From a virus (taxonomy: Duplodnaviria; Heunggongvirae; Uroviricota; Caudoviricetes): a DNA stretch of 18,937 bases. The DNA lies in IMG/VR virus record IMGVR_UViG_2547132278_000005, positions 1-18,937 of that record. One strand, 5' to 3'. The translations under genes were made by a program, and so were the position numbers. Within the stretch, counting starts at the first letter, position 1. Each line of letters starts with the position of its first letter. Shown piece after piece: positions 2,996 through 10,993 of the stretch. The notes under the pieces are model-generated. The model saw nothing but the letters and a program-made list of their open reading frames with translations. It was not told where the DNA came from and did no database searches.

Positions 2996-3478
2996 CTATC
3001 TGGTCAGGGTGTCGTACTGTTTTTCGCAGACTCTTCCGGCTTCGGCTGCCCGGTCAGCATACTCTGCCAGTTGTCTGTTTCTCTCGAGAGATTTGCTGAG
3101 CACGTCGGCAAGCAAAACTCCGGTGTCTGCGGCTGACGACCCAGCGCCGACAATGGCGTTATAGTGCCTGAGCTGCTCACGGATGGCAACGAGCTGTTGC
3201 TGCAACCGGCCAGCGCGAGCGGCAGCATCAAGAGCATCATTGCGCGCCTGGTCGATCCTCTGCTGCGATTCACGTTCATTGATCGCTTTCTCCTGTTCGT
3301 AGTGCTGACGAACTCTCTCATCTTCAGTTTTGCGGTCTTCTTTCGCCTGAGCATACCCGGCGTCGTACTGACGACTGCCGTGCACATTCCAGGCTACAAC
3401 TCCTGATATGACCAGAACAGCAAGCATCGCCATGATAACCAACTGTTTTCTGTATGCTTTTACGAATGCCCAGATCAT
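2996..3478 (-). CDS. Rz-like i-spanin (inner-membrane spanin subunit)
   Basis: N-terminal TM helix, charged coiled-coil periplasmic domain; start overlaps the endolysin stop (ATGA); last gene of the lysis cassette. Confidence 0.8.
3004..3240 (-). CDS. Rz1-like o-spanin lipoprotein embedded in the +1 frame of Rz
   Basis: Internal ATG of ORF 3004-3387 gives [17 protein letters not shown]... with lipobox LAGC and a Pro/Ser-rich mature part, fully inside Rz. Exact start (3240 vs 3237) uncertain. Confidence 0.6.
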   Translation of the reverse strand: MMLLMLPLALAGCSNSSLPSVSSSGTITPLSALGRQPQTPEFCLPTCSANLSRETDNWQSMLTGQPKPEESAKNSTTP

Positions 3479-4402: not shown

Positions 4403-4793
4403 CGTCTTTTCTCCCCGGAATTAACTCGCGTGGATTATCTGAACGGTGATAGAGCCATATGCCAATACGCACAGCCACAATTGCTGAAACAAATGCACCA
4501 ACAGAAAAGGCCACTCCGCCTTCAAAAGAATCCTGTGTAATCGTTGGAATTAAGCTGGCTACTCCTATTAGGATTGACGAAGTTGGTTTGTAGAAGAGCA
4601 ATCCACAAAGGAAACTAAGCATGGACAAAAGAACTCTGCGACGAACTGGATACTCTACGGCAGAGGTAATGAAAATTACCGCCCCAGATAAAGAACCTAA
4701 TGCAACCTCTGGTGGCACACCTGCAATAAAAGCAATCAGGCCACCAACGCCAATTGATTGATTTAATTGGTAATTTGTAAATACACCAGACAT
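4389..4793 (-). CDS. Holin-like membrane protein (4 predicted TM helices)
   Basis: Four hydrophobic helices and a charged C-terminus ([19 protein letters not shown]); ATG at 4793 preceded by GGTGG (the ORF track starts at the GTG at 4802, which has no SD). Confidence 0.55.
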   Translation of the reverse strand: MSGVFTNYQLNQSIGVGGLIAFIAGVPPEVALGSLSGAVIFITSAVEYPVRRRVLLSMLSFLCGLLFYKPTSSILIGVASLIPTITQDSFEGGVAFSVGAFVSAIVAVRIGIWLYHRSDNPRELIPGRKDDGNA

Positions 4794-4850
4794 TTCAACC
4801 ACCCGTTAACATACATAAAAACCTCGTTAATCAAAAATAGAAACACATAA

Positions 4851-4901: not shown

Positions 4902-7400
4902 TTATATGGCTACCATGGCTGTAGAGCCAGAGCCATAGGCACTTGATTCTAACTCGAGAGTGTAATATCCATTCTTAGTACCACCATCAACTCCTGACCA
5001 ATCAAATGATAATGAAATCCAGTAACCACTTTCACTAGGATCTTGCACAAGATTGTCACCCATACCCCTTATACGCCTAATAGGTTGATTAGGGCCGACA
5101 GAATCAACTTCATATATATCTGTCATATTTCGTCCTATCTGTCTGGCTGTGATAACAGGCCAAGAGCCACTATAATTTAATATAGTAACAAGGAATTGAG
5201 TGTCATTGTTTATCTTGGAAAGTATAGCTTCAATATACCCATTACCATGCGTTCCTCCTTTTGAGTTTATGCGTAGCTTTGCTATCCCAGTGTCAAACAT
5301 ATTTAGTCTGTTATCAAACGTTCTTGGATGCAGATCAGCTGGAAGAGGCAATCGAATAGAAGATAAAGTATATGGGGATGGTGTATCTTCTGGATTACCT
5401 ATGATCATATTTGGTAATCTTACTACAATTGATTCTCTAACCCCTTTTTGAATACCAGTTACCGGTTGGGATAAATGAACATGGACTGGGCGTATAGTAA
5501 TCCCCTGAATACTTGCATATCCTGTTGTTGTACCATTAAGATTATTAAATATAGCTATAGTTTTCCACCCTCTCCCCACTAAATTAGCAGCTCGTTTGGG
5601 AATTGTATCAAGTTTATGATTATGTCTATTTCTTAAAAAACGACCTGTTGATTGCTGAGCATATAAATTATGCCATAAGCTAGAACGTTGTGTTGAATAT
5701 GGATATATATCAACTGCTCCGGCATACCATCCATCAGTGACAATTGATATCTGATTATCATCCCAATAACCAATTACATCTACCTCAGCAGCCTCAGCAT
5801 CAAGATAAAAACTAAATGTTGCCATTGCTGCTGTATTAATGGGAAAGCCACCAAGAATACCTTGTAAAGTTGAAGCTCTTTGATTATAAACATTCACTAA
5901 GTTTGAATATACATCATAAAATCCGACTTGATCAGATTGTTTTCCAGGCCATGTATGCACTTCAGATGATATTGGTCTGTTACCCTGAAGTAACCCTCCA
6001 CCCAAAAGCATGGATACCATTGCCTCTCCTAAAATAGCATATCCTTTACTATTAAAGTGAACAGGGTCGCTTTGAATAGAACCATACTGTCTATTATAAG
6101 CAATTTCATGGGCAGGAAAATAAGCACATCCATAAACTGATGCAAGATTTCTTATTGACTCTCCCCACATTTGCCAAAGAGGATCCCCTTCCCCATTACC
6201 ACCGCTGGCAGGACTACAAAGTACAACCCCCATCCCCCAGTCAATAAGCTTACGAATAAATAACTCCATATTTTTCATATATGTATCGTAAGTCTGGCTA
6301 TCAGTATTAGCGGAGTCGTTAATTGCATACATTAAAAATGCTATATCGCAATTTGGATTAGACTGCCAATCAGGTTCATTATAAGCACGGTACGCTGTAT
6401 AACCTGATTTTGCTCGAACAGTTATTGTTACCGGGCAGCCAGACAATATTGGAAGTGCGTTCTTTATAGCCTTTGGATATGTCATTGTTGCATGGCGATA
6501 ATTATCACCAACGCAAACATCATCATCTTCTGGAGCGATAGTATCGGATGTATTAACATCATATCCAGCCGTTATTGAGTCCCCCTGACACAATATTTTT
6601 ATCCCTATTTTTTTTCGTAACTTATAATGAGCTAACGTAAGGTTTCTGATATTTTTTGAACGGTATTCTGCACTATCAAGAGATATCAACCACTCTTGAA
6701 TATTACGATTATCCGATGTATTAATAATGCTGGCACCTGTTGGCTTTGCCAACTCAATAAGTACATCAGATGCTGAACCAGATTCAGGAAGGACCATTAT
6801 CGGATTTCCAGAGTCATCCATAGCAACAATCTTATTCTTACGCTGCTCAATTCCCGGCAAAGCTGGTATAGGTTCAGGGGTTCGTAGCGTTCTGATCTGG
6901 TTTGTTTCAGAAACTCCATCAACATAATTTTTAGTCGCCGCATCTTGAGCGCGTGACGGTTCACGAAGATTGCGAATGTAGTTTCCCTGTGCATCATAAT
7001 AGTTAGCCACAAACGACGGCTTGCGTAACGCCAGGCTAAACCAGCTACGAACCTGCTGAATCAACATCGTTATTTTATCAAAAGCATTCTCATGCACTTC
7101 TGCAAAAAACTTTCCCTGATTACGCAGATCCATTTCCTGAGTAACAGGAAGCTCACGAGCTATAGATATCTGATGACCTCTAGCCAACGCCTCCGACAGA
7201 ACAACACTGCCGCCGTTGTACCCTCCAGCCCCGGTAACTGTGTAATCAGTATCAAGGGTCAGCACACTGACATTCTCGTTCAGGTCAACAACCTGCACCA
7301 CCAGATCCGATTTATTGAAAATCCTAAAGGTGTAAGGAAATGATGTCGTAACGCCGTTACCTGTGTATTCGTTGTGGTCAACTTCGGTTGAGACCGTCAT
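4902..7400 (-). CDS. Tailspike / receptor-binding protein with T7 gp17-like N-terminal anchor and central SGNH (GDSL) esterase domain
   Basis: 832 aa; N-terminus (YTGNGVTTSFPYTF...LVVQVVD...VLTLDTDYTV) resembles the conserved podovirus tail-fibre anchor; SGNH blocks GDS at 6576-6584 (ILCQGDSITAGYD) and DPVH (catalytic Asp/His) in SDPVHFNSKGY; SD GGAGA. Confidence 0.85.
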   Translation of the reverse strand: MTVSTEVDHNEYTGNGVTTSFPYTFRIFNKSDLVVQVVDLNENVSVLTLDTDYTVTGAGGYNGGSVVLSEALARGHQISIARELPVTQEMDLRNQGKFFAEVHENAFDKITMLIQQVRSWFSLALRKPSFVANYYDAQGNYIRNLREPSRAQDAATKNYVDGVSETNQIRTLRTPEPIPALPGIEQRKNKIVAMDDSGNPIMVLPESGSASDVLIELAKPTGASIINTSDNRNIQEWLISLDSAEYRSKNIRNLTLAHYKLRKKIGIKILCQGDSITAGYDVNTSDTIAPEDDDVCVGDNYRHATMTYPKAIKNALPILSGCPVTITVRAKSGYTAYRAYNEPDWQSNPNCDIAFLMYAINDSANTDSQTYDTYMKNMELFIRKLIDWGMGVVLCSPASGGNGEGDPLWQMWGESIRNLASVYGCAYFPAHEIAYNRQYGSIQSDPVHFNSKGYAILGEAMVSMLLGGGLLQGNRPISSEVHTWPGKQSDQVGFYDVYSNLVNVYNQRASTLQGILGGFPINTAAMATFSFYLDAEAAEVDVIGYWDDNQISIVTDGWYAGAVDIYPYSTQRSSLWHNLYAQQSTGRFLRNRHNHKLDTIPKRAANLVGRGWKTIAIFNNLNGTTTGYASIQGITIRPVHVHLSQPVTGIQKGVRESIVVRLPNMIIGNPEDTPSPYTLSSIRLPLPADLHPRTFDNRLNMFDTGIAKLRINSKGGTHGNGYIEAILSKINNDTQFLVTILNYSGSWPVITARQIGRNMTDIYEVDSVGPNQPIRRIRGMGDNLVQDPSESGYWISLSFDWSGVDGGTKNGYYTLELESSAYGSGSTAMVAI

Positions 7401-7503
7401 GTTAAATCTCCAGATAGTCGCAGCACCCGTTGCGCCGCATATCCGGTTATTCTATTACCTTAAAAACCACATATGGATAGATAACCCATAAATACGAATA
7501 GAT

Positions 7504-7520
7504 ATTACCTTTCGGGTAAT
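7504..7520. promoter_or_regulatory. Operator-like palindrome ATTACC-tttcg-GGTAAT (copy 1 of 4)
   Basis: Perfect 6-bp inverted arms with 5-bp spacer in the divergent region between the tailspike and the LexA-box gene; the same arms recur at 8624, 8717 and 9725. Confidence 0.5.
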
Positions 7521-7556
7521 TTGCAAAACGTGCTGGATAGCAAACAAATTATTTGC

Positions 7557-7576
7557 TACTGTATAAATATACAGTT
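7557..7576 (+). promoter_or_regulatory. LexA (SOS) box
   Basis: TACTGTATAAATATACAGTT against consensus TACTGTATATATATACAGTA (CTGT-N8-ACAG, 18/20), ending 20 bp upstream of the ATG at 7596. Confidence 0.75.
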
Positions 7577-7595
7577 ATTGCATGGAGAAGATAAG

Positions 7596-7853
7596 ATGCA
7601 GCAGTATCACTATCCACTGGAAGACGGATTTACCGAAAGGATTCACACGCCGGGAGGCGTCAGATCACTAGTGGAGGGATCGCACTTGATGAAATTACTC
7701 CGGGATCTCGATAAGGATGGATTTAATGTCGATGGCCCACTTGCCGAACTGACTGCACTGATTAACTACGTCACCAGCTCACAGATGTCTATGCGGGATC
7801 TGCAAACACATCTCGACTATTGTGCCGAACAATTACGAAAACAAACCCGGTAA
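7596..7853 (+). CDS. Small SOS-regulated protein (85 aa), paralog of the C-terminal domain of the AntA-like antirepressor; putative antirepressor module
   Basis: ATG with SD GGAGAAG directly downstream of the LexA box; aligns with residues ~130-210 of the 9004-9660 protein (shared GxxSL.E.S.LM.LL..L..DG..V.G..AELT...Y......RD.QTH..Y). The ORF track starts upstream at 7521, but that extension overlaps the promoter/LexA box. Confidence 0.65.
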   Translation: MQQYHYPLEDGFTERIHTPGGVRSLVEGSHLMKLLRDLDKDGFNVDGPLAELTALINYVTSSQMSMRDLQTHLDYCAEQLRKQTR

Positions 7854-7860
7854 ATTTAAA

Positions 7861-7876
7861 GGCCGCAAGAGCGGCC
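7861..7876. terminator. GC hairpin (GGCCGC-aaga-GCGGCC) between convergent genes, putative bidirectional terminator
   Basis: Perfect 6-bp GC stem flanked by AT-rich sequence on both sides; overlaps the stop of the minus-strand 7876-8604 gene. Confidence 0.5.
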
Positions 7877-8604
7877 TATCGTTTCGCTTTGTGCTCGTCC
7901 CAGCACGTTTTGCACCATGCCATTAAGCCATCCGCATTTTGATTATTAGGGTAAAAGCTTGTTCGTTTTCTGCGGACATTACAAATTGGGCACCACTTCA
8001 TATGGCGTGTATTCTTTGGGCCATCGAGACACCTTGCACACCACTTAGTCAATCCATCTGGATTTTTTGACGATTTCCTGAATTTTTCATATGGTAGGTT
8101 TATTCTGCATCGCAAGCACTGCTTGCTACCACTTGAAACTCTGTTAGCTGATTCTTCTTTTGGCGGCGATACAGAAGGTATTCTTGCTGGCTCTGATACT
8201 GCCTGAGGTGCTTTTTTAGATGACTGAGACGATATGTCATCACCAGGGAATCTTCCATGATATGCCGGACGCGTTGACACTCCAGGTGGAAGCTCAGCTG
8301 TAAACGGCTTTGGCTGAATCAGTTGCCTCTCTTTTGCTAACTCCTGCTGTTTATAATATGTCTGGATTACCGCACTATCATAAGCAGGAGGTGCGGAAAT
8401 ATTAGGCGCATTACCTCCAGTTTTTTGAAACTGAGTAGAGGTGTGTTCTATCACCTGTGTACGATTAATCGTTATCTCCCCATCTTCGGTCTTTATCGTT
8501 TTGTTATGATTAACGACCGTACGATCAGAGATCTTAGTCTTGTTCTGGTTGATAACGTAAATAATCACCGCAACCACACCAACAACTATCCAGAAAACTT
8601 CCAT
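7876..8604 (-). CDS. Membrane-anchored protein with two tandem C-x2-C-x20-C-x2-C zinc-ribbon repeats
   Basis: N-terminal TM helix (FWIVVGVVAVIIYVI), Pro/Ser-rich linker, then CLRCRINLPYEKFRKSSKNPDGLTKWCARC and CPICNVRRKRTSFYPNNQNADGLMAWCKTC (shared N.DGL..WC..C); SD GAGGA. Confidence 0.75.
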   Translation of the reverse strand: MEVFWIVVGVVAVIIYVINQNKTKISDRTVVNHNKTIKTEDGEITINRTQVIEHTSTQFQKTGGNAPNISAPPAYDSAVIQTYYKQQELAKERQLIQPKPFTAELPPGVSTRPAYHGRFPGDDISSQSSKKAPQAVSEPARIPSVSPPKEESANRVSSGSKQCLRCRINLPYEKFRKSSKNPDGLTKWCARCLDGPKNTRHMKWCPICNVRRKRTSFYPNNQNADGLMAWCKTCWDEHKAKR

Positions 8605-8623
8605 TGCTTTTCCTCACAATAAC

Positions 8624-8640
8624 ATTACCTTAAAGGTAAT
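8624..8640. promoter_or_regulatory. Operator-like palindrome ATTACC-ttaaa-GGTAAT (copy 2 of 4)
   Basis: Perfect palindrome about 20 bp upstream of the start codon of the 7876-8604 gene, abutting its SD. Confidence 0.5.
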
Positions 8641-8716
8641 ATCTTGCTTTCAGGTGATCAAGCGTTAAACGCAATCAACCAAATACGGTTGATTTTAATA
8701 TTTCTTCGCGTTTATC

Positions 8717-8733
8717 ATTACCTTTGCGGTAAA
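8717..8733. promoter_or_regulatory. Operator-like palindrome ATTACC-tttgc-GGTAAa (copy 3 of 4)
   Basis: Same arms and spacing as the other copies; lies at the head of the structured leader upstream of the AntA-like gene. Confidence 0.5.
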
Positions 8734-8767
8734 TTTACATTGCACTCCTCTTGTGCCATAGTAATCG

Positions 8768-8845
8768 GGCACTGGCAAAATCCAGTGCCGGGATTGGTCT
8801 CCCGGATTACTAAGTGGCGCATACCACGCCAGACGTGGTTTTTTT
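8768..8845 (+). other. Structured non-coding leader: two GC hairpins followed by a terminator-like hairpin with T-run (possible attenuator or small RNA)
   Basis: GGCACTGG-caaaat-CCAGTGCC (8768-8789); CCGGGA-ttggtc-TCCCGG (8788-8805); CCACG-ccaga-CGTGG-TTTTTTT (8824-8845). No credible ORF or RBS in this stretch. Confidence 0.3.
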
Positions 8846-9003
8846 ATGCGTATAGCACAGTCATGCCAGAATTATGGTGGGCTGAATGGGGGTCCGAAAG
8901 GACGCCGGTACCACTTAGGCCGGTAAGACCAACTCCGTTCAGTTCACCACCATCTGATTGGTCTCAGCGGTGGTGATGTAATTCGCTAAGTGGAGACGCC
9001 ATC

Positions 9004-9660
9004 ATGAACGCTCAACTCATCCCCGTATTCAACGGCACTATATCTAACGAAACAGCCCTACTTTGTAATGCCCGCGATCTGCACGCTTTTTTAGGTGTTA
9101 AAAAGGTGTTTGCAGCATGGATTACAAATCGCATATCAGAATACGAATTCATTGAAAATCAAGACTATATTTTGCTTTCCAATTTGGGAAAGCAAACATC
9201 TGGTAGAGGCGGCCACAACCGCAAAGAGTACCACCTCACCCTTGATACAGCCAAAGAGCTGGCGATGGTCGAGCGTAACGAAAAAGGTCGCCAGGTGCGA
9301 CGCTACTTCATTGAATGCGAGAAACGTTTAAGACAACAAGAAACAAAAGTGGAGAAGGTCTTGTCAGGCTTCATGCCCGCCATTATGGAGGCGATCAAGC
9401 TGGAAGACAAAAAAGAATACAGCGCCCCACTGAAGCCCGGCTACCGTAGCCTGATTCATTCGCCGTCTGGTGTTCTCGGCCTGACGGAGAACTCACTGCT
9501 GATGAATTTGCTGAACCAGTTACAGGAAGACGGGCACGACGTATCGGGCGCGGCGGCGGAACTGACCACCATGTTCTGCTACATCGTCGGTGTGAGCAAA
9601 TGCCTGCGTGATATCCAGACCCACGCGGAGTACATCAACGACAAGGCAGGGTTCTTCTGA
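9004..9660 (+). CDS. AntA-family phage antirepressor-like protein (N-terminal AntA domain plus C-terminal domain shared with the 7596-7853 protein)
   Basis: N-terminus LIPVFNG...[33 protein letters not shown]...[14 protein letters not shown]...[11 protein letters not shown] matches the AntA/AntB antirepressor family pattern; SD GGAG. Confidence 0.8.
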
Positions 9661-9724
9661 CAGAACGGCGGCACAGGGATGTGCCTTTAAATAATTCTGT
9701 ACGATTGCAGGTGAATAGCTTACT

Positions 9725-9741
9725 ATTACCTCAAGGGTAAG
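9725..9741. promoter_or_regulatory. Operator-like palindrome ATTACC-tcaag-GGTAAg (copy 4 of 4)
   Basis: Same arms and spacing; about 60 bp upstream of the 9800 start codon and downstream of a weak hairpin terminator (9670-9696). Confidence 0.5.
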
Positions 9742-9799
9742 AAAGCATTTTTAATCTTCCCTTCAAAACGCGTCCTGTAGCCAAACATGGGAGGACGAA

Positions 9800-10432
9800 A
9801 TGAGAACAAATACAACAAGAAAAGCGATGCCATACATTATCCCAGAAGCAGATTTCGATAGAAAACTGAACATGTCTGAGAAGAACACTAGTCACACCGA
9901 AAGCTACTTAGCGAAAGGTGTGGTTGATTTCGTTCTTCCGGGATTCACAACACCTTATGGTTATCGCCTTGTAAAATCTTGTAATGGCGATCATTACAGA
10001 ATGATTACTACCAGCGATACTCCAGAAACGGTGTATGCGGTTAAGTTAATCTTTCGGGAAGATATCGTCGAAGCCAAAAGAACATGTACGCAGATCATGG
10101 TATGGCGTACGCCTAATGTTATTCATGACCGTGCTGTTCATGGTTTGCCTCAGATTTTTTTTCAGTTCTTCCTAGAGCAATATGCGATCGTTGTATCTGA
10201 TGAGCAACAAACAATCGATGGGAGAAGATTCTGGGAAAGAATGATTTCTTGGGCTATAAACACCCCGGGATATAATGTATACGTTTCAGATGGCTCTGAA
10301 GAAGATAGACCTCTTAGCTTCATGACATCATGGGATGATTTCTATAGCCAGTGGGCTGATTTCTGTTGGGGCAGTGATAAAGATGTGCATACCCACAGAC
10401 TACTGGTTATAAGCAAAGATAAACTGCATTAA
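9800..10432 (+). CDS. Hypothetical protein (210 aa), unassigned accessory-island gene
   Basis: Strong SD GGGAGGA; soluble, Trp/Asp-rich, no recognised motif; followed immediately by a strong terminator. Confidence 0.75.
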   Translation: MRTNTTRKAMPYIIPEADFDRKLNMSEKNTSHTESYLAKGVVDFVLPGFTTPYGYRLVKSCNGDHYRMITTSDTPETVYAVKLIFREDIVEAKRTCTQIMVWRTPNVIHDRAVHGLPQIFFQFFLEQYAIVVSDEQQTIDGRRFWERMISWAINTPGYNVYVSDGSEEDRPLSFMTSWDDFYSQWADFCWGSDKDVHTHRLLVISKDKLH

Positions 10433-10437
10433 TAGAA

Positions 10438-10458
10438 GCCCGCGCCGCGGGCTTTTTT
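10438..10458 (+). terminator. Rho-independent terminator
   Basis: GCCCG-cgccg-CGGGC followed by TTTTTT, 6 bp after the stop codon at 10430-10432. Confidence 0.8.
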
Positions 10459-10495
10459 GTGTCTGCGGATTCCCGCCCGGGCGGCGGTGGCATTC

Positions 10496-10522
10496 GTTAA
10501 AAACAAGGCCGCGAAAGCGGCC
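10496..10522 (-). terminator. Rho-independent terminator for the minus-strand membrane-protein gene
   Basis: On the minus strand GGCCGC-tttc-GCGGCC is followed by TTGTTTTTAA; lies just downstream of the stop at 10532. Confidence 0.6.
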
Positions 10523-10531
10523 TGTGACATG

Positions 10532-10828
10532 TCACGCTCTTTTTCTGAATGATAGCCATTCGAAAAATGATGACATTCCACCGCAGACAATAGCAAATAT
10601 GATCCCACCAAAGAAGAGAAGGCCAGCCTGCCACCACTCCCACCGCCATACATCCACAGCGCCAACCATACCAACAATCGCTCCAACAAATGGAATATAG
10701 CTCACGATGAAAGCAATGGGGGCTGCAATTATCCAGTGCAATCCCCACCATGATTCAAGCCCAGCCATAATTGCTGCCAACTGAAAAAGACCAACGACGA
10801 TATAAACAATGAATCCTATAGCTTGCAT
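10532..10828 (-). CDS. Small polytopic membrane protein (98 aa), candidate superinfection-exclusion-type protein
   Basis: SD AGGTGA; 3-4 hydrophobic helices, Trp-rich loop (VWRWEWWQAG); sits directly after the ejection-protein genes, the position sieA occupies in P22. Confidence 0.7.
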   Translation of the reverse strand: MQAIGFIVYIVVGLFQLAAIMAGLESWWGLHWIIAAPIAFIVSYIPFVGAIVGMVGAVDVWRWEWWQAGLLFFGGIIFAIVCGGMSSFFEWLSFRKRA

Positions 10829-10840
10829 GTAGTCACCTAT

Positions 10841-10993
10841 TTACCCAGTAAAAATCAGAGGCCTCCCCTCAATAAGGCTTGCAACAAGAACTATTCCCTG
10901 CACAACAAAGATGAACCAGCAAATAGCTTGAGTCTGAGGGTTAAGAAAATATTTGTAGCGGTCAATAAATAACAACCCACCAGAAATTATCAC
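10841..10993 (-). CDS. Possible small hydrophobic peptide (50 aa, GTG start); speculative
   Basis: Hand-translated minus-strand ORF (V/M)IISGGLLFIDRYKYFLNPQTQAICWFIFVVQGIVLVASLIEGRPLIFTG; no clear SD. Confidence 0.2.
   Translation of the reverse strand: MIISGGLLFIDRYKYFLNPQTQAICWFIFVVQGIVLVASLIEGRPLIFTG

Follow-up and report, generated by a model that had tools for sequence, protein, structure and literature searches.

The DNA considered here, IMG/VR virus record IMGVR_UViG_2547132278_000005 (18,937 nucleotides, analysed at its full length and referred to as the window), is identified by its sequence as a flank of host chromosome together with one arm of an epsilon15/phiV10-like podophage prophage of the genus Uetakevirus, and carries four copies of the palindrome ATTACC-N5-GGTAA that form the subject of this analysis. 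Bases 1 to ~2850 belong to the Escherichia coli chromosome and include yfgG/yfgH/yfgI and the end of an IS1 element, and the prophage is integrated at the guaA attachment site, as are phiV10 and epsilon15. The window region is 90-97% identical to phiV10, TL-2011b, phiv142-3 and others, and its gene order agrees with that of phiV10 and of the prophage found at the guaA/yfgI site of E. coli AREA_486. Along the prophage part, lysis genes are followed by the tailspike gene, then by a short accessory region (7400-10900) and by minus-strand virion genes; the lysis cassette (4802 down to 2996, minus strand) lies downstream of the tailspike gene (4902-7400) on the same strand.

A motif scan of the 18.9 kb finds ATTACC-N5-GGTAA exactly at 7504-7519, 8624-8639, 8717-8732 and 9725-9740, with the core TTACC-N5-GGTAA perfect at 7505, 8625, 8718 and 9726. 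Only 0.01 matches are expected by chance in the window according to 200 dinucleotide shuffles, and the palindrome also ranks first in a de novo count with 5-nt arms and 0-9-nt spacers. The full sites, designated O1 (ATTACCTTTCGGGTAAT, 7504-7520), O2 (ATTACCTTAAAGGTAAT, 8624-8640), O3 (ATTACCTTTGCGGTAAA, 8717-8733) and O4 (ATTACCTCAAGGGTAAG, 9725-9741), all lie between open reading frames (ORFs). O1 and O2 match on both strands, being full 6+6 palindromes of the form ATTACC...GGTAAT, and the right ends of O3 and O4 read GGTAAA and GGTAAG, respectively. A lone ATTACC at 7454-7459, lacking a right arm, constitutes a half-site, and a scan allowing up to two mismatches finds no one-mismatch copy elsewhere in the 18.9 kb. 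Kinship of the palindromes with IS1 was considered and rejected, as the IS1 end at 291-308 (GGTAATGACTCC...) merely starts with GGTAAT. A first-pass annotation made from the window alone had described the four palindromes, the half-site, their intergenic location, their absence from the rest of the 19 kb and the unrelated IS1 end, and all of these descriptions hold. The hexamer ATTACC/GGTAAT is in addition enriched over the whole window (27 seen, 8.5 expected); only 9 of the 27 belong to the four palindromes and the half-site, and an everted pair at 4665-4680, within the first ORF of the lysis cassette, is an example from outside them.

The motif had further been described as confined to the accessory island, which is true within the window and does not hold for complete relatives, where it is phage-wide; it looks confined because the part of the prophage that holds the early and immunity regions is not included in the window. 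In a blind palindrome count, TTACC-N5-GGTAA is the commonest palindrome in each of five complete phage genomes, with 8 copies in phiV10, 10 each in TL-2011b and SPC32H, and 9 each in Enterobacter phage Tyrion and Klebsiella phage BUCT711. Epsilon15 has 11 copies of the palindrome. Fifty sites yield the consensus A-TTACC-wwWww-GGTAA-T, with A or T at the centre base in 98%. The near-identical AREA_486 prophage carries the four sites of the window base for base together with seven more, amounting to 11 perfect copies in 40.8 kb of prophage versus none in 51.2 kb of flanking chromosome, so that a comparable density in this stretch of host DNA, which would speak against a set of phage operators, is not observed. 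O2 has an identical site, and O4 an orthologous one, in both TL-2011b (34478 and 33333, respectively) and the AREA_486 prophage.

The positions of the copies relative to promoters are equally conserved. In the spacer between the repressor gene rep and the divergent cro-like gene, perfect copies are found on the rep-promoter side, and the rightward promoter contains a one-mismatch copy inside its -35/-10 spacer. At the early-left promoter and at that of the DUF1064 gene, which follows the replication genes, a TTGAYW -35 element, 22 nt and TTACC succeed one another in an arrangement fixed to the base pair, such that one T serves both as the end of the -10 element and as the first T of the operator; every genome has another operator 62 bp further upstream (63 bp in one case). 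More copies occur ahead of the terminase, portal and tailspike operons. This layout is that expected for the operators of an immunity repressor. The presence of sites at the promoters of multiple units supports the earlier proposal of common control over several transcription units, and their presence at the rep/cro, early-left, replication-distal, terminase and portal promoters excludes a regulon specific to the island. The terminase operator of phiV10 (87-101) falls within the annotated coding sequence of the small terminase subunit (terS, 41-715), and in TL-2011b, SPC32H and epsilon15 its counterpart precedes the annotated terS start; the phiV10 start codon has probably been called too early.

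The epsilon15 genome paper reportedly gives the operator consensus ATTACCWDWWNGGTAAT; the comparison made here uses the GenBank feature table. In that table (AY150271.2), seven features are labelled 'protein_bind: repressor; lysogeny' and all seven have the sequence ATTACC-N5-GGTAAT. The annotated repressor site at 19895-19911, in the spacer between gp19 (ant) and the tailspike gene, aligns with O1 of the window. The identity of such palindromes as operators of the repressor Rep is already known, because the epsilon15 record labels them as repressor-binding. A full-text search of the literature for the motif string returned no match.

Rep is encoded in the immunity region, and phiV10 gp40 matches the SPC32H Rep protein (PDB 5D50_A) with an E-value of 4e-42. 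The repressor of the AREA_486 prophage is 100% identical to gp40. The family has been crystallised (PDB 5D50/5D4Z), and the N-terminal domain is the best conserved part between the E. coli and Salmonella proteins; the motif is kept although the repressors of E. coli and Salmonella/Klebsiella phages share just 42-45% overall identity. The SPC32H homologue binds DNA as a tetramer (published work as cited in PMC9638917), Rep is described as a tetramer that attaches to DNA palindromes and is dismantled by the tetrameric antirepressor Ant (PMC9638917, PMC9986798), and a single Rep tetramer is enough for repression (PMC9638917). In phage ZX5, overexpression of the identical repressor reduces the endolysin and holin transcripts by at least 99.9% (PMC9782041). 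The proposal that the palindromes are operators for one sequence-specific DNA-binding protein is supported by the epsilon15 annotation, the Rep homology and the phage-wide placement at promoters, and the dimer envisaged there gives way to a tetramer. The regulator was rightly expected elsewhere in the prophage: the near-identical AREA_486 prophage encodes a Rep of the phiV10 gp40 type carrying a helix-turn-helix (HTH), and no Arc/Mnt-type protein is needed. That the regulator could not be named from the window is accounted for by the location of rep outside it, yet it belongs to a crystallised family and its antirepressor is encoded beside O1. As the agreement with the epsilon15/SPC32H Rep system extends to sequence, placement, type of phage and partner antirepressor, the comparison indicates that the window's sites are members of this system rather than mere resemblances of it, and the palindromes are predicted, with a probability of about nine in ten, to be operators of Rep, which acts as the master repressor of lysogeny in epsilon15/phiV10-like podophages.

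O1, an exact match to the motif, is located between the tailspike gene and ant, the gene under LexA control. The ORF at 7596-7853 (plus strand) encodes an 85-aa protein that matches PDB 5D50 chain E, 'Anti-repressor protein' (the Ant of SPC32H), over residues 2-84 with an E-value of 1.4e-46, and also belongs to phrog_450; by this homology, the small LexA-boxed gene beside O1 is identified as the known Rep antirepressor Ant. The gene is preceded by a perfect LexA box (CTGTATAAATATACAG, 7559-7574). An alignment of seven phages reveals three conserved blocks in the spacer, namely the LexA box, O1 and GGTAATAGAAT; the last is invariant in all seven and contains the best candidate for the tailspike -10 element, TAGAAT at 7454-7449. 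The candidate tailspike promoter (7449-7477, minus strand) consists of TCCATA (7477-7472), 17 nt and this TAGAAT, and holds the half-site, which on the minus strand reads ...ATATGTGGTTTTTAAGGTAATAGAAT; the tailspike unit is presumed to be controlled from this O1/half-site promoter region. The virtual centre of the half-site is 50 bp from the centre of O1 in the window, phiV10 and SPC32H, with O1 upstream. Since the half-site overlaps the candidate -10 element, it is read as the putative -10-overlapping partner of O1, mirroring the 62-bp pairs at other promoters. The likely start of ant is ~60 bp away, downstream of the centre of O1, and ant itself is therefore probably controlled mainly by LexA. 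The ant gene of SPC32H is likewise said to be LexA-controlled, in 2013 work attributed to Kim and Ryu.

Two further elements of this region are recorded as side observations. The conserved sequence cATATGTGGTTwwwww precedes GGTAAT at the promoters of the tailspike gene and the portal operon, and a full operator at that of the DUF1064 gene (window 7449-7480, minus strand; phiV10 3305-3335 and 35115-35146), and could be an extended -10 element (TGTGg) or a site for a late activator; a similar ATGTGTTT occurs ahead of the lysis cassette, near 4850 of the window. A perfect 15-bp inverted repeat (TGCAAAACGTGCTGG at 7522-7536 and CCAGCACGTTTTGCA at 7900-7914) brackets the LexA box and ant, with its left arm directly after O1 and its right arm in the 3' coding end of the leftward gene for the 242-aa protein described below. 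The pair is also present in the AREA_486 prophage (20223 and 20601), has a rough chance expectation of ~0.003, and could be an old recombination junction or the ends of an invertible segment.

The remaining three sites are each associated with an accessory cassette. O2 lies upstream of the leftward gene for a 242-aa protein (phrog_6762; 7876-8604, minus strand), 20 bp from its start codon and 93 bp from O3. The translation of this gene has a hydrophobic N-terminus and Cys-rich, zinc-ribbon-like repeats at the C-terminus. O4 precedes by 59 bp a gene whose product has 210 aa (phrog_1349; 9800-10432, plus strand). O3 is found at the promoters of a unit in which an isrK-type Hfq-binding small RNA (sRNA) with its terminator (8769-8845, plus strand; Rfam RF01394, 67.7 bits against a gathering score of 50) and a C4-type antisense RNA of the kind found in the P1 immI region (8870-8954, plus strand; Rfam RF01695, 61.2 bits against a gathering score of 45) stand in tandem within the leader of an antirepressor gene (window 8769-8954). 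One candidate promoter at O3 comprises TTGATT (8689), 18 nt and TATCAT (8713-8718), the last T of the -10 element being the first T of TTACC, and phiV10 and SPC32H have the same register at their early-left (PL) promoter. In addition, O3 directly adjoins the -35 element of a second candidate promoter (TTTACA at 8734, 17 nt, TG-CATAGT), for which the predicted start, ~8769, coincides with the beginning of the isrK model.

The protein product of this unit is a second antirepressor (9004-9660, plus strand; phrog_377 and phrog_450) with an AntA N-terminal domain (Pfam AntA, E 4e-26). In its C-terminal ~80 aa it shares 43% identity with the small Ant over a 74-aa stretch, both proteins matching phrog_450. 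Two antirepressors therefore carry one Rep-binding module under differing controls. The AREA_486 prophage has the same antirepressor fusion with a Bro-N N-terminus, and phiV10 gp23 is a truncated version. ORFs together with domain and phrog matches reveal no Arc/Mnt or other small regulator between 7400 and 10900, and in TL-2011b a separate Arc-Ant module is found elsewhere in the genome. The possibility that the operator travels as a piece of a mobile ant cassette was rejected: the homologous ant cassette of an Stx2 phage has no such palindrome, which indicates that the operator belongs to the circuit of the resident phage. In that Stx2 phage, WGPS6, the homologous ant gene is preceded by an RNA of the sRNA-Xcc1 type and an apparently unregulated TTGACA/TATATT promoter.

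Covariation of Rep and the motif within the genus is uninformative, both the motif and the N-terminal domain being conserved throughout, and for this reason more distant HTH homologues were compared. The unrelated phages Pseudomonas PseuP_224 and Psychrobacter pOW20-A have only the N-terminal HTH in common with Rep, and their repressor genes are flanked by four TACC-N4-GGTA and four TACC-N5-GGTA sites, respectively. These half-sites support an independent link of the binding domain to the motif, and point to a wider HTH subfamily with a common half-site; Mcat9 and H-19B have degenerate or variant half-sites only. The repressor regions of PseuP_224, pOW20-A and, more distantly, H-19B CI (L008 5923-6835, L010 2380-3325 and L011 2379-2491) contain TACC-N4/5-GGTA or TTACC/TTATC-N5-GATAA variants.

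The assignment to Rep is carried by the identity of the motif, its phage-wide promoter-proximal spread, its presence at rep/cro, the homologies that link Rep and Ant with the solved proteins of SPC32H, and the prior annotation. Several points weigh against it. The rep gene of this particular prophage is outside the window, the closest prophage with the four sites encoding a Rep identical to gp40; a search upstream of the O2 and O4 genes found no convincing sigma-70 promoters; O3 is centred near -44 of the isrK promoter, a position from which activation is also possible; and a cro-like protein may share the same sites. The last two points lead to the alternative that the sites are mainly used by another phage regulator, either the cro-like protein or phiV10 gp55/epsilon15 gp49, a conserved 'transcriptional regulator' encoded at the end of the early-right operon, which would make them sites of a lytic switch or of a late activator. 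Cro-type proteins usually use the operators of their repressor too, sites do occur ahead of the late terminase, portal and tailspike operons, and the location of O3 would allow an activator to work at the isrK promoter. The motif is nevertheless found at early promoters and in the rep/cro spacer, the classic arrangement for a repressor, the epsilon15 annotation describes the sites as repressor-binding, and phages that have a Rep-type HTH but lack the other regulators show this half-site around their repressor genes, all of which makes predominant use by another phage protein improbable.

An origin outside the phage circuit is less probable still. Sites for a host factor, such as an MqsA-like or GntR-like protein reading ACC...GGT, would wire the accessory genes into a host regulon, and would accord with the failure of the first reading to find a regulator in the window and with the ACCT-N3-AGGT contained in O2. 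That element resembles the MqsA palindrome. It fits only one of the four sites, however, and the motif follows the phage rather than the host across Escherichia, Salmonella, Enterobacter and Klebsiella phages and has no perfect copy in the 51 kb of chromosome flanking the AREA_486 prophage; an MqsA-like host site was rejected on these grounds, and host control in general is very unlikely. A similarly slight chance attaches to the suggestion that the palindromes are non-regulatory repeats, namely module-boundary sequences that aid recombination between phage mosaics, or weak RNA hairpins. A copy does bound each accessory cassette, the cassettes vary between relatives, and the arms are able to form a 6-bp stem. 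The stems are A/T-rich, however, have no T-run after them and were not flagged in a terminator scan, which led to rejection of the terminator or hairpin reading, and several promoters keep their -35/-10 elements at a distance from the palindrome that is constant to the base pair, a property not required of recombination sites. Any role of the repeats in mosaic exchange would be a by-product.

As operators of Rep, the palindromes would be read by paired N-terminal HTH domains, each contacting one of the two TTACC half-sites around an A/T-rich 5-bp centre, and the active protein would, following the literature, be a tetramer with two such DNA-reading pairs. In the lysogen, Rep is expected to occupy operators that overlap or abut the core promoters of essentially every phage transcription unit. 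Four silenced units would fall within the window: the tailspike and lysis genes (O1 and the -10 half-site), the 242-aa gene (O2), the isrK-C4-antA unit (O3) and the 210-aa gene (O4). For O2 and O4, the mode of repression and exact overlaps with promoters are what we infer. Upon DNA damage, LexA would leave its box before the small ant gene, Ant would be made and would take Rep off the DNA, and all four units would be derepressed together. At 62 and 93 bp, the distances between paired sites approximate 6 and 9 helical turns, respectively, and would fit the bridging of two sites by one tetramer with two DNA-reading pairs.

The 43% identity of the C-terminal domain of the second antirepressor to Ant suggests a feedback step under Rep control. 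In this variant of the circuit, removal of Rep by Ant would allow the AntA-Ant fusion to be made, which would then keep Rep off; the positive-feedback role of this Rep-controlled second antirepressor is, like the bridging, a proposal. A broader and tentative proposal, which we regard as possible but on balance doubtful, is that the E. coli branch has extended the Rep regulon to acquired cassettes, each with its own operator, that the isrK/C4-guarded and Rep-repressed AntA-Ant fusion creates a positive-feedback loop for commitment, and that a tetramer bridging O2 and O3 shuts both divergent promoters.

The closest known counterparts are the operators and the Rep-Ant switch of epsilon15 and SPC32H, which share the 17-bp ATTACC-N5-GGTAAT, its location in the ant-tailspike spacer, its placement at early, late and immunity promoters, the repressor family and the LexA-boxed small antirepressor. 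The E. coli lineage differs in having three extra operators at cassettes that epsilon15 and SPC32H lack (isrK-C4-AntA, the phrog_6762 gene and the phrog_1349 gene), and E. coli Rep is ~42% identical overall to Salmonella Rep. These additional operators before accessory cassettes appear to be the modestly new element of the present locus.

Other phages offer parallels of organization. In P1, the C1 repressor acts on dispersed operators, and the immI region comprises the operator Op51, the c4 antisense RNA, icd and ant. The two systems are alike in having one master repressor with genome-scattered operators, one of which precedes a unit of C4 RNA and antirepressor, and the immI order of C4 RNA (8870-8954) upstream of the antirepressor gene (9004) is found here. 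The C1 operator is an asymmetric 17-bp sequence rather than a symmetric palindrome, and C1 is unrelated to Rep, which limits the analogy to one of logic. The isrK-orf45-anrP module of Salmonella Gifsy-1 (Hershko-Shalev et al. 2016, as summarised in PMC7380047) likewise places an isrK sRNA upstream of an antirepressor gene, whereas the module described here also has a C4 RNA and lies behind a Uetakevirus Rep operator. The lambda CI and 186 CI repressors, with their cooperative pairs and looping, and P22 Mnt/Arc share palindromic operators that overlap core promoters, and the roughly helical-phase distances of 62 and 93 bp recall the lambda and 186 pairs and suggest cooperative binding or looping. 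The proteins and sequences are different, and the Arc/Mnt ribbon-helix-helix ORF of the P22 immI type is absent between 7400 and 10900.

Taken together, the data dispose of a false lead, as the palindromes do not define a new island-specific regulon with an unknown regulator, and indicate that TTACC-N5-GGTAA can be used in annotation to mark Rep-controlled promoters in prophages of the epsilon15/phiV10 type. For the genes behind O2, O3 and O4, the prediction is silence in a lysogen and expression once induction sets in, and this speaks against their being lysogenic-conversion genes. A second antirepressor under the control of Rep would add modestly, and in a testable way, to the Rep-Ant switch as published.

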